A stretch of DNA of 64,000 nt from an uncultured Alphaproteobacteria bacterium (GCA_963764605.1 CAVXTJ010000007.1:423-64422), one strand, 5' to 3'. Shown: positions 36,711 through 39,700, numbered from the stretch's first letter. The notes: a model not told the origin generated them from the sequence alone. Numbers and translations: made by a program.

Positions 36711-39700
36711 TCAGCTCACCGCCTTGGCGTCGATCTCGCGCATGGCGGCGGCATCGCGAGCGGAGAGATCGGGGTAAGCTTTGTCCGATCCAACATCCTT
36801 GGTGATGCGCCACGAGCGCGCGCACTTCTTGCCTTCCGCGAGTTTGACGACGACGCCGACGCCCTGAACACCCGGCATTGCAAATGCGTCGGCAGGCGCG
36901 GCCTTATCGCTGACGATGATCGCCGACGTGATGCACACTTCCGCCATATCGACGCCGTCGAGCCCGCATCATCAAATCGGGATCGGTGACGTAGACGCTC
37001 GGCGCGGCTTCAAGCGACGAGCCGATTTTCTTGTTCGCACGTTCGACTTCGAGCGCGCCGGTCACCACCGTGCGCACTTCCTTGACGCGATCCCATTTAG
37101 CGGCGAGATTTTCATCGCTCCAGTCGCGCGGAATTTTCGGGAACGGCAAGAGATGAACGCTAGTCCATTTCTTTTGGGCGATACTGCAGCCACGCTTCTT
37201 CGCACGTGAACGACAAGATCGGCGCCAGCCACTTGATCAGCGCATCGCAAATATGATCGACAACTGTCAGCGCAGCCTTGCGCTTCTTGCTCGAAGGTGC
37301 TTCGCAGTAGAGCGCGTCTTTGCGGATATCGAAATAAAACGCCGAAAATTCCGTATTCATGAACTGCGACAGCAGGGCCACGATCTTGCGATAGTCATAG
37401 GTCTCATAGGCCTTGCGGATCTCGTGATCGATCTCGGCCAAGCGATGCAGCATCAAGCGCTCAAGCTCGCGGCATATCCTTGAGCGAAACCGTATCCGCC
37501 TTGGCATCGAAATGCGCCAGCGCGCCGAGCATCCAGCGAGCGTGTTGCGCAATTTGCGATAGGAATCCGCCGCCGCCTGCACGATTGCCGGCCCAAAGCG
37601 GATGTCGTTTGTCGTATCGGACGAGGCCACCCACAAGGCGCAGAATATCCGCGCCGCTCGATTTCATGACGTCCTGAGGCGAAAGCACATTGCCCTTCGA
37701 CTTGGACATCTTCTCGTCGCCCTTCTCGTCGAGCACGAAGCCGTGCGTCAGCACGATATCATAGGGCGCATGTCCGCGCGTGCCGCAACTTTCCAGCAAC
37801 GACGAATGGAACCAGCCGCGATGCTGGTCCGAACCTTCAAGATACATGACGCGGTCTTGCCCGCCTTTGACGTGCGCTTGCGCTGAAATGCCTTTGAGAC
37901 CTGGGAAAGTCTCCGGATCTTCGAGCGTGAAGGCGTGCGTGCAGCCTGAATCGAACCACACGTCGAGTACGTCTTTGACCTGCTCCCATTTCGGATTTCG
38001 CGTCGGGCATGATGCCTTTGAGAAAGCGCTCCTCCGCGCCCTCTTCGAACCAAACGTCGGCGCCCTTTTCAGCAAAGCTTTTTCGATGCGTTCCATCAGC
38101 TCAGGCGACTTCGCCGCGTGCGCGCCGTGACCCGGCAGCACTTCATCGGTCTCGACATTGCGGAACACCGCGATCGGTACGCCCCAGGCGCGCTGACGCG
38201 ACACGACCCAATCGGGCCGCCCCGCGATCATGCCGGTGATGCGGTTTTCGCCCGCCGCCGGCACCCATTCCGTTTTCTTAATTTCGGAAAGGGCTGTTGC
38301 ACGAAGGGTGTCTGACCCTCCGGGTCTGACACCATCACCCGGCGCATCGTTCTTTCCTGGTGTCAGACCCGGAGGGTCCGACACTGTCGTGAGTGGCTTA
38401 TCCATCCCAATGAACCACTGCGGCGTGTTGCGGAAGATGACCGGCTTCTTCGAGCGCCACGAATGCGGATACTGATGCTTCAGGCGGCCGCGCGCGATGA
38501 TGTTGCCCGCCTCTTGCAGCGCTTTGATGACCGCGTCGTTCGCGTCGTCCTTGTCGCCGTTTTCTTTCAGCACGCGCTTGCCTTCGAAGCCCGGCGCGGC
38601 CTTGGTCATGCACGCCATCGGCATCGACGGTGAAGGGCACTGTCGTATCGATGCCGCGATCGCGCAGCGCTTTCTGGTTCGCGGTCCAGATGTTGTAGTC
38701 GTCCGCGCCGTGACCCGGCGCCGTGTGCACAAAGCCCGTGCCCGTGTCGTCGGTGACGTGATCGCCGTCGAGGAGGGGGACGTCGAAGTCGTAGCCGAGC
38801 GATGCAAGTGGGTGGGCGCAACGCACGCCATTCAAGTCACCAGCCGTTCACCGCAGCCAATTTTTCGTAACTCTTCGACTTTTGCGGCCTTCATGACATC
38901 TGCCGCAAGCTTGTCGGCGAGAATGATACTTATCGCCGACCTTGGCCCAGTTATCTTCTGGCGCGTTCGTAACTTCATAGATGCCATAAGCAATCTTCGA
39001 TGAGAAACTGATCGCGCGGTTGCCGGGGATCGTCCAAGGCGTTGTCGTCCAGATCACAATGGCAGCGCTTCTAACTATGTTCGGCATGATCTCATGCCTT
39101 TTGGTTCGTCGCCGTACCCAGCCTCCGGCGACAACATGAACAACAGGAAACTTCACCCAGATCATATCCGACTGATAGTCCTGATACTCGACCTCGGCTT
39201 CCGCCAGCGCTGTCTTCTCGACCACGCTCCACATCACCGGCTTCGAACCGCGATACAGCAATCCGTTCGACGCAAACTTCATGATCTCGCGCGCGATCAC
39301 TGCTTCCGCGCGATAGCTCATCGTCAGATACGGATTGCTCCAATCGCCGAGCACGCCCAAGCGCTTGAACTCCTCGCGCTGCACATCAACCCACTTTTCT
39401 GCAAACTCGCGGCACTCCTTGCGGAACTCGTTGACCGGGATCGTCGTCCTTGTTCTTGCCTTTGGCGCGATACTGCTCCTCGATCTTCCATTCGATCGGC
39501 AGGCCGTGGCAATCCCAGCCCGGCACGTAGGGGCAATCGTGGCCCAGCATCGACTGCGATTTGACCACGAGGTCTTTCAGGATCTTGTTCAGCGCGTGCC
39601 CGATGTGGATGTTGCCGTTCGCATATGGCGGCCCATCATGCAGCACGAACTTCGGTGCGCCCGCGCGCTTGCTCGCGCAGTTTCTTGTACAGCCCGATCT

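Follow-up and report, generated by a model that had tools for sequence, protein, structure and literature searches.

Within a 64,000-nt stretch of DNA (the window) from a metagenome-assembled Hyphomicrobium genome (G000), the isoleucyl-tRNA synthetase (IleRS) gene ileS contains a 77-bp palindromic sequence that is read in frame. We conclude that this sequence is very probably a copy of a lineage-specific family of hairpins resembling repetitive extragenic palindromic (REP) elements, which usually occurs as intergenic inverted doublets, and that the copy was inserted into a short surface loop of the enzyme. The family exists and is mostly intergenic, the ileS insertion is present in some relatives and absent from others, and one relative (G077) has in-frame sister copies in five further housekeeping proteins. 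We propose that a doublet of this family entered the short surface loop that follows the TPQWF strand of IleRS, and that it would have survived there for three reasons: of the frames of the 'T' unit, the copy uses the only one free of stops, the insert amounts to 26 codons, and a flexible peptide rich in Pro, Gly, Ser and Asp would be accepted in a loop that can accommodate 4 to over 100 residues. Judging from the sequence, the ileS copy is probably translated and the enzyme probably works. The features concerned are as follows (window coordinates).

36720-39870, minus strand: ileS, the sole isoleucyl-tRNA synthetase gene, broken by at least six frame changes
38307-38384, minus strand: 26 codons (78 nt) of insert peptide, i.e. 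the 77-bp element and a conserved flanking base
38308-38384, minus strand: 77-bp inverted doublet of two hairpin units (REP dimer, REPIN-like), probably translated inside ileS, with the architecture of the family's other doublets
38308-38332: hairpin unit 1, GTGTC-T-GACCC-TCC-GGGTC-T-GACAC on the plus strand; the coding strand gives GVRPGGSDT
38333-38359: 27-nt spacer, encoding ...GKNDAPGD...
38360-38384: hairpin unit 2, the reverse complement of unit 1 but for one difference; the coding strand gives VSDPPGLT
59501-59576: intergenic copy, between the stop of a plus-strand gene (59488) and the stop of the convergent minus-strand gene kup (59585)

The ileS element and its dispersed family

The element is laid out as a 25-nt unit, a 27-nt spacer and an inverted 25-nt unit, the unit having the form GTGTCNGACCC-NNN-GGGTCNGACAC. 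Its arms (38308-38334 and 38358-38384) are 27 nt long and 96% complementary, with one mismatch, and each is itself a 25-nt hairpin in which a GTGTC/GACAC stem, a T-T (or A-A) mismatch and a GACCC/GGGTC stem lead to a 3-nt loop, just as a preliminary description of the window had it. As RNA, the surrounding 93-nt region folds into one long hairpin (-60.6 kcal/mol, z = -7.35); as DNA it reaches -36 kcal/mol (z = -7.9). The 26-aa insert is read on the minus strand within a 456-aa open frame, directly before LRATAL. The flanks of the doublet (38300-38307 and 38385-38392) also pair (CACGA...TCGTG), and at the same place in the relative G061 (contigs C76 and C306) they read CTCGAAG...CTTCGAG, altered on both sides in a compensatory manner. 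These paired flanks may be the remnant of an older loop hairpin, or chance. We rejected a longer, 93-bp element with outer inverted repeats as a feature of the family because the other copies share no flank.

A scan of the genome for the unit bears out the earlier suggestion that the peptide is repeat-derived. G000 holds 17 units at 10 loci, arranged as seven doublets and three singles, and a block-shuffled version of the genome gives 3 loose matches. Nine of the 10 loci are extragenic, for example between rbfA and truB, next to kup, or just upstream or downstream of other genes, and ileS is the only coding copy. Within the window, a 19-nt pattern taken from the preliminary description matches six times (0.03 expected by chance). 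The near-identical intergenic copy announced at 59500 is indeed present and intergenic, and its first unit is intact and near-identical; its second unit (59552-59576), however, has decayed (arms 79% complementary), and its spacer is unrelated. Long frames run over two other copies (989 aa stop-to-stop, or 922 aa from the first start codon, at C9, and 314 aa at C11), which we rejected as coding: they are antisense, and they either lack a Pfam match or run opposite real genes.

In the genomes scanned, the family is essentially confined to part of the genus. Among 64 Hyphomicrobium genomes, 12 carry the unit and 52 do not; ten of the carriers have 6-49 units and two have a single one-mismatch match, and a reversed-pattern control gave 0. 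Unit counts in relatives reach 49-69. The 300 other genomes of the order that we scanned (129 genera) yielded one lone one-mismatch match.

We next consider the protein into which the element falls. We take the loop after the conserved TPQWF strand to be the place where the chain returns from the editing domain. The solved IleRS structure 8WNF has four residues at this loop, where the G000 protein has about 23 more. Across 162 IleRS, 20 to 125 residues separate the anchors QWF and WVP; the count is 20-31 in most proteobacterial (including most alphaproteobacterial) enzymes and 27-125 in Hyphomicrobium. In line with the preliminary description, the segment is short in outgroups, and it is hypervariable here. 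Alignment with relatives defines the insertion. G061 has the same element at the same junctions (DKPLxx|VSDPPGLTP...GVRPGGSDT|LRATAL) with an insert peptide of exactly the same length, while G024, the closest element-free relative, has a 9-residue loop (DKTGVPALGNH). G077 carries the element in the same loop with other junctions (DKVAKA|...|KHEQRTLRQTAL), the more distant metagenome-assembled genome (MAG) L168 carries it with a third junction type, and in G006 and G010 the loop holds a doublet of another, C/G-run palindrome. A tree from about 200 flanking columns, which as a short single-gene alignment serves as a guide only, unites G000, G061, G077, G024 and G006 in a clade (94/94, then 100/99), makes sisters of G000 and G061, and leaves L168 outside on a long branch. 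The insertion shared by G000 and G061 probably took place in their common ancestor. Many orthologs that lack the GTGTC palindrome have an equally long loop, which could be read as a sign that nothing was inserted, but these loops are non-homologous and are encoded by other palindromic repeats.

The state of the ileS sequence raises the question of whether the insert is an assembly artefact (from chimeric joining at a repeat, or from an error left uncorrected) or whether ileS is a decaying pseudogene. G000 is a MAG of 19 contigs (3.38 Mb, 58% G+C, 91% complete), and relative to an intact ortholog its ileS has at least six frame changes, so that the unbroken stretch described earlier does not extend to the gene as a whole. 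Even the 456-aa open frame with the element contains a stretch of about 25 aa that is out of frame (near 37950-38030), the true sequence lying in another frame. The neighbouring ribF (40027-40990) is broken by one frame change, and a valS-like class Ia synthetase gene (G000:C13:33217-35117) has several internal stops. Yet the same insertion, with the same junctions and length, is found in the independent assembly of G061, where ileS has open frames of 539 and 558 aa to either side, although that assembly itself breaks inside the element, its two contig ends overlapping by 17 nt. The frame around the element is thus backed by an insert of equal length in a second genome. Moreover, the element is also present in this loop in G077 and L168, the frameshifts strike several essential genes, as sequencing errors would, and ileS can hardly be a true pseudogene because it is the sole IleRS gene in the assembly. 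The breaks in ileS, ribF and valS look like the uncorrected indel errors of an error-prone long-read MAG rather than decay. We therefore regard an artefact or a pseudogene as very unlikely, and note that all frame-based readings in the window should be handled with care given these errors.

In-frame copies in other housekeeping genes

The preliminary description held that a mobile repeat family adds peptide to housekeeping enzymes, and G077 bears this out. In this genome, in-frame doublets occur in IleRS, in UvrA between the interaction and DNA-binding domains, at three sites in the UvrB tail, in GlyQ, at two sites in ThiC (one at either end) and in a DnaE2-like polymerase, with Pfam confirming the identity of UvrA, GlyQ and the polymerase. 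Several of these sites are empty in G000, namely those in uvrA and glyQ, one in thiC and two in uvrB; the other uvrB and thiC sites hold other sequence. In uvrA, glyQ and thiC, filled and empty sites share flanks with 86-92% identity, and every gap length that we counted is divisible by three (72 nt in thiC, 96 nt in glyQ). Because the filled and empty sites in these close relatives are clean, the direction of change can be read from them. For the uvrB site we also considered a spacer of host origin, with two single hairpins inserted on either side of host DNA, and rejected it, as the empty G000 site is unlike the G077 spacer.

All coding copies of G077 read [VG]SDPxGLTP-x-GVRPxGSD[TP]. The same peptide in the same frame in six different housekeeping proteins might point to a protein module under selection, for instance a linker or a motif for interactions, which came to be shared by several proteins while the palindrome was incidental. 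The locations of the copies already largely refute this, as nine of the 10 G000 loci are intergenic and so are most of the G077 loci examined, which have no long open frame across them. In addition, the identity extends to the nucleotide level, synonymous positions included. The constant reading frame follows from the unit sequence, in which TGA stops close the two remaining frames of the 'T' unit, and either orientation of the doublet gives the same peptide because a head-to-head doublet is in outline its own reverse complement. A protein module is, of all the explanations that we weighed, the one to which we give least credence.

A further observation concerns the uvrA copy of G077 (L142). 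After the doublet, a half-unit and 16 nt are repeated in tandem about three times, giving AGSDPDRKL-AGSDPDRKL-AGSDPDR. This tandem repeat is a secondary expansion of repeat-derived coding sequence.

Conservation of the arms, mobilisation and comparison with known systems

When comparing the four ileS copies, we found that the arms match at 24-25 of 25 positions (96-100% identity across four genomes), whereas the spacers agree at 10-16 of 27 and the coding DNA on either side, part of a highly conserved gene, is 62-87% identical. The G000 ileS spacer shows partial likeness only to the ileS spacer of G061 (16/27) and to the spacer of the first uvrB site of G077. Spacer length, on the other hand, is constant in the coding copies: all seven doublets in the set with a unit spacing of exactly 52 nt are coding copies, whereas the fourteen intergenic doublets have spacings of 43-77 nt, and the ileS copies of G061 and L168, which stand outside this set, have 27-nt spacers too. 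Most simply, the spacer of the source form would be 27 nt long, and coding copies could not alter it by one or two bases.

These patterns also suit an explanation in which the doublet is kept in ileS, uvrA, uvrB, glyQ and thiC for a function at the nucleic-acid level, with the peptide as a by-product. Folded in the mRNA, the doublet might slow ribosomes at a domain boundary or govern decay there; otherwise, a host protein might bind to it. Either function would be compatible with a selfish origin. In its favour are the near-identity of the arms beside less conserved flanks and randomised spacers, the confinement of the 52-nt spacing to coding copies, the very stable fold of the ileS region, and a variant unit (GGGTC...GACCC) in which both partners of the outer stem have changed, as expected for a selected hairpin. 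However, the majority of copies lie between genes, and many relatives, G024 with its short loop among them, do without the element, which leaves no room for an essential role in ileS. The constant 27-nt spacer is equally explained by selection against frameshifting indels, and conserved arms are a general property of REP families. We thus consider a retained nucleic-acid function unlikely, albeit clearly better placed than an artefact or a protein module.

The insertion of a mobile REP-like doublet remains the explanation that we favour, but several observations weigh against it. Near-perfect arms beside randomised spacers do not fit the simple neutral decay of a copied 77-bp unit. Some factor acting on DNA or RNA (a mobilising enzyme, a hairpin-binding factor or repeated re-insertion) may keep the arms intact everywhere; alternatively, the copies may be independent recent insertions. 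Direct repeats of 4-5 nt flank three of about seven filled sites and may be due to chance. The many indel errors of the G000 assembly count here as well, as does a poor AlphaFold2 model of a 366-aa fragment (36-row alignment, mean pLDDT 55.8, pTM 0.47), in which the insert is coil with pLDDT below 50 at residues 77-94; this model could at most hint at a flexible coil excursion. Finally, we found no transposase associated with the family. Neither of the two RAYT-like Y1_Tnp genes of G000 is flanked by GTGTC units, and the second RAYT type, found in G077 and G024, is not found in the carriers G006, G010 and G007.

The two RAYT-like genes of G000 go with other repeats. One, of the type also found in G077 and G024, adjoins a 115-184-bp repeat. 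The other (G000:C10:171576-172121; positions 1468-2013 of locus L122) has GTAG-tagged REPs on both sides (GTAGGTTGGGTTAGCGC...) and forms a classic REPtron; about 17 units of this GTAG-tagged REP occur in G000, one of which abuts a GTGTC doublet at C1:243891. There are likewise no GTGTC units near the RAYT genes of G077 or G024. REPINs are reportedly mobilised by RAYTs, as is said to have been set out by Bertels and Rainey in 2011, and the preliminary description had suggested looking for a RAYT or HUH transposase flanked by the repeats. We found none flanked by GTGTC units, and we reject a RAYT as mobiliser in this form, given the lack of flanking units and three carriers in which the second type was not found; a RAYT may nevertheless act in trans. 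Miniature inverted-repeat transposable elements have terminal inverted repeats and a target-site duplication and are related to an autonomous insertion sequence. Here the two units of a doublet act as inverted termini, the short direct repeats may be chance, and a parent insertion sequence was sought through the RAYT search only.

In-frame REPs are already in print for repair genes and tRNA synthetases, and the ileS case is a new example. Intragenic REPs, mostly dimers, encode 20-30 aa and are concentrated in uvrA, uvrB, dnaE2 and recBCD, with cases in tRNA synthetases; dimer spacers are variable, and the CGTC class is transposase-less and mostly found in Alphaproteobacteria (Di Nocera, De Gregorio and Rocco, 2013, BMC Genomics 14:522; PMC3733652). 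Like GTAG and CGTC REPs, the Hyphomicrobium units are short GC-rich hairpins in tens of copies, located mostly downstream of genes or between convergent genes, usually as head-to-head dimers with sequence-variable spacers, and occasionally in frame in the same host genes. The predominance of dimers, the alphaproteobacterial host and the lack of a dedicated transposase in our searches further recall the CGTC class. That class is defined by an unpaired CGTC (or TGTC/CCTC) tag, an 8-9 bp stem starting with A-T pairs, a 4-5-nt loop and a CCA tail (PMC3733652). The Hyphomicrobium unit has no GTAG; a TGTC is present at its 5' end, but it pairs with the 3' GACA and would not then be an unpaired tag. 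The stem is 5+5 bp around a T-T mismatch, the loop is 3 nt, and there is no CCA tail, the 3' flank being a C followed by variable bases. The unit falls outside the structural definition of GTAG and CGTC REPs but belongs with them in function. The main text of that paper makes no mention of Hyphomicrobium (PMC3733652).

With REPINs, for which there is a population model (PMC8049555), the family shares two inverted REP hairpins that join into one larger hairpin, arms that are better conserved than the spacer, and vertical, lineage-specific inheritance. The family also resembles REP and REPIN sequences in being a short palindrome with dispersed, mostly extragenic copies (nine of 10 loci) and in forming doublets at seven of the 10 G000 loci. 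It differs from REPINs in having no RAYT found flanked by its units, no GTAG cleavage tag and spacers that are essentially unrelated between copies.

The preliminary description had compared the insertion with Rickettsia palindromic elements (RPEs). RPE-1 to RPE-10 (Ogata et al., 2000, 2002) and their Wolbachia equivalents are in-frame palindromes in unrelated housekeeping genes, where the added peptide is thought to sit in loops without destroying function (PMC10969869, PMC3733652). The Hyphomicrobium palindrome likewise lies in frame in genes of unrelated function, from IleRS to the UvrA, UvrB, GlyQ, ThiC and DnaE2-like polymerase genes of G077. By description, the two are set apart by size and host: RPEs are about 150 bp long and belong to the reduced genomes of obligate intracellular bacteria (PMC10969869), whereas here two 25-nt hairpins form a 77-bp doublet in a methylotroph lineage that is free-living and has 58% G+C, and G000 has only one coding copy. 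Our findings extend RPE-like addition of peptide by selfish hairpin DNA to a free-living, GC-rich alphaproteobacterium. The family offers a system in which to seek the mover of transposase-less REPs.

The IleRS loop and the UvrB tail as candidate landing pads

The added interest of the case lies in its well-resolved sites and in a single loop of an essential enzyme that has been repeatedly rewritten by different repeat families. Compared with windows of equal length from its own locus, the loop DNA gives a better fold than 95% of them or more in about 24 of the 34 long-loop Hyphomicrobium IleRS. The palindromes responsible come from several families, one example being the CTCCCC-GAA-GGGGAG core within a 10-bp outer stem in G020. 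A similar exchange is seen in the UvrB tail. At one site, the GTGTC doublet of G077, G062 and G061 corresponds to a C-run/G-run repeat in G000; a second site holds the C-run/G-run family in G061 and is empty in G000.

Several further observations touch on these loops. The unit loop is split by a 27-nt insert in glyQ of G077 (L134), at uvrB site 3 of G077 (L036) and at uvrB site 1 of G062 (L034). These nested inserts are of two types, each at two places, and are read through as peptide; one type holds the hairpin CCGCC-TCC-GGCGG. They suggest, short of proof, that hairpins draw in further hairpin elements, and hairpins already present in the IleRS loop may have attracted later palindromes in the same way. 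Repeat-like peptides (PLPxGEG, SPxGGG and others) also occur in the IleRS loop at L091, L093, L103, L045, L071 and L170, in Bradyrhizobium-related, sphingomonad and other Hyphomicrobium genomes. Because such peptides are found in other Alphaproteobacteria, the hotspot extends beyond the G000 clade. In G018 (L025), the loop reaches 107 residues and contains seven tandem copies of the 8-residue RGNDASEG.

We tentatively raise the possibility that the IleRS loop after TPQWF and the UvrB tail are actively targeted landing pads, where palindromic elements enter earlier palindromes and replace one another. We put this forward as a speculation that is more probably wrong than right. It is prompted by one family occurring with three junction types in a single loop of roughly 10 codons in lineages apart on the tree, by the occupation of the same loop by at least three other hairpin families in other Hyphomicrobium, and by the repeat-like peptides at this position in Bradyrhizobium-like and sphingomonad genomes. 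The 27-nt hairpins nested in unit loops point the same way, as do the coding copies themselves, which are of a uniform 27-nt-spacer type with arms better conserved than the surrounding essential gene. Were this so, integration directed by hairpins would offer essential enzymes a general way to acquire and swap loop peptides. The loop in any case provides a natural map of insertion tolerance in IleRS, and a warning for the annotation and alignment of aminoacyl-tRNA synthetases.

A second palindromic family is present in the window itself, between lspA and the end of ileS (36542-36654), with C-run/G-run arms (CCCTCCCC...GGGGAGGG) of 40 nt that are 70% complementary. By a simple pattern, at least 28 hairpins of this type occur in G000, and a repeat of the same type occupies the IleRS loop in G006 and G010, as well as one UvrB-tail site in G000.

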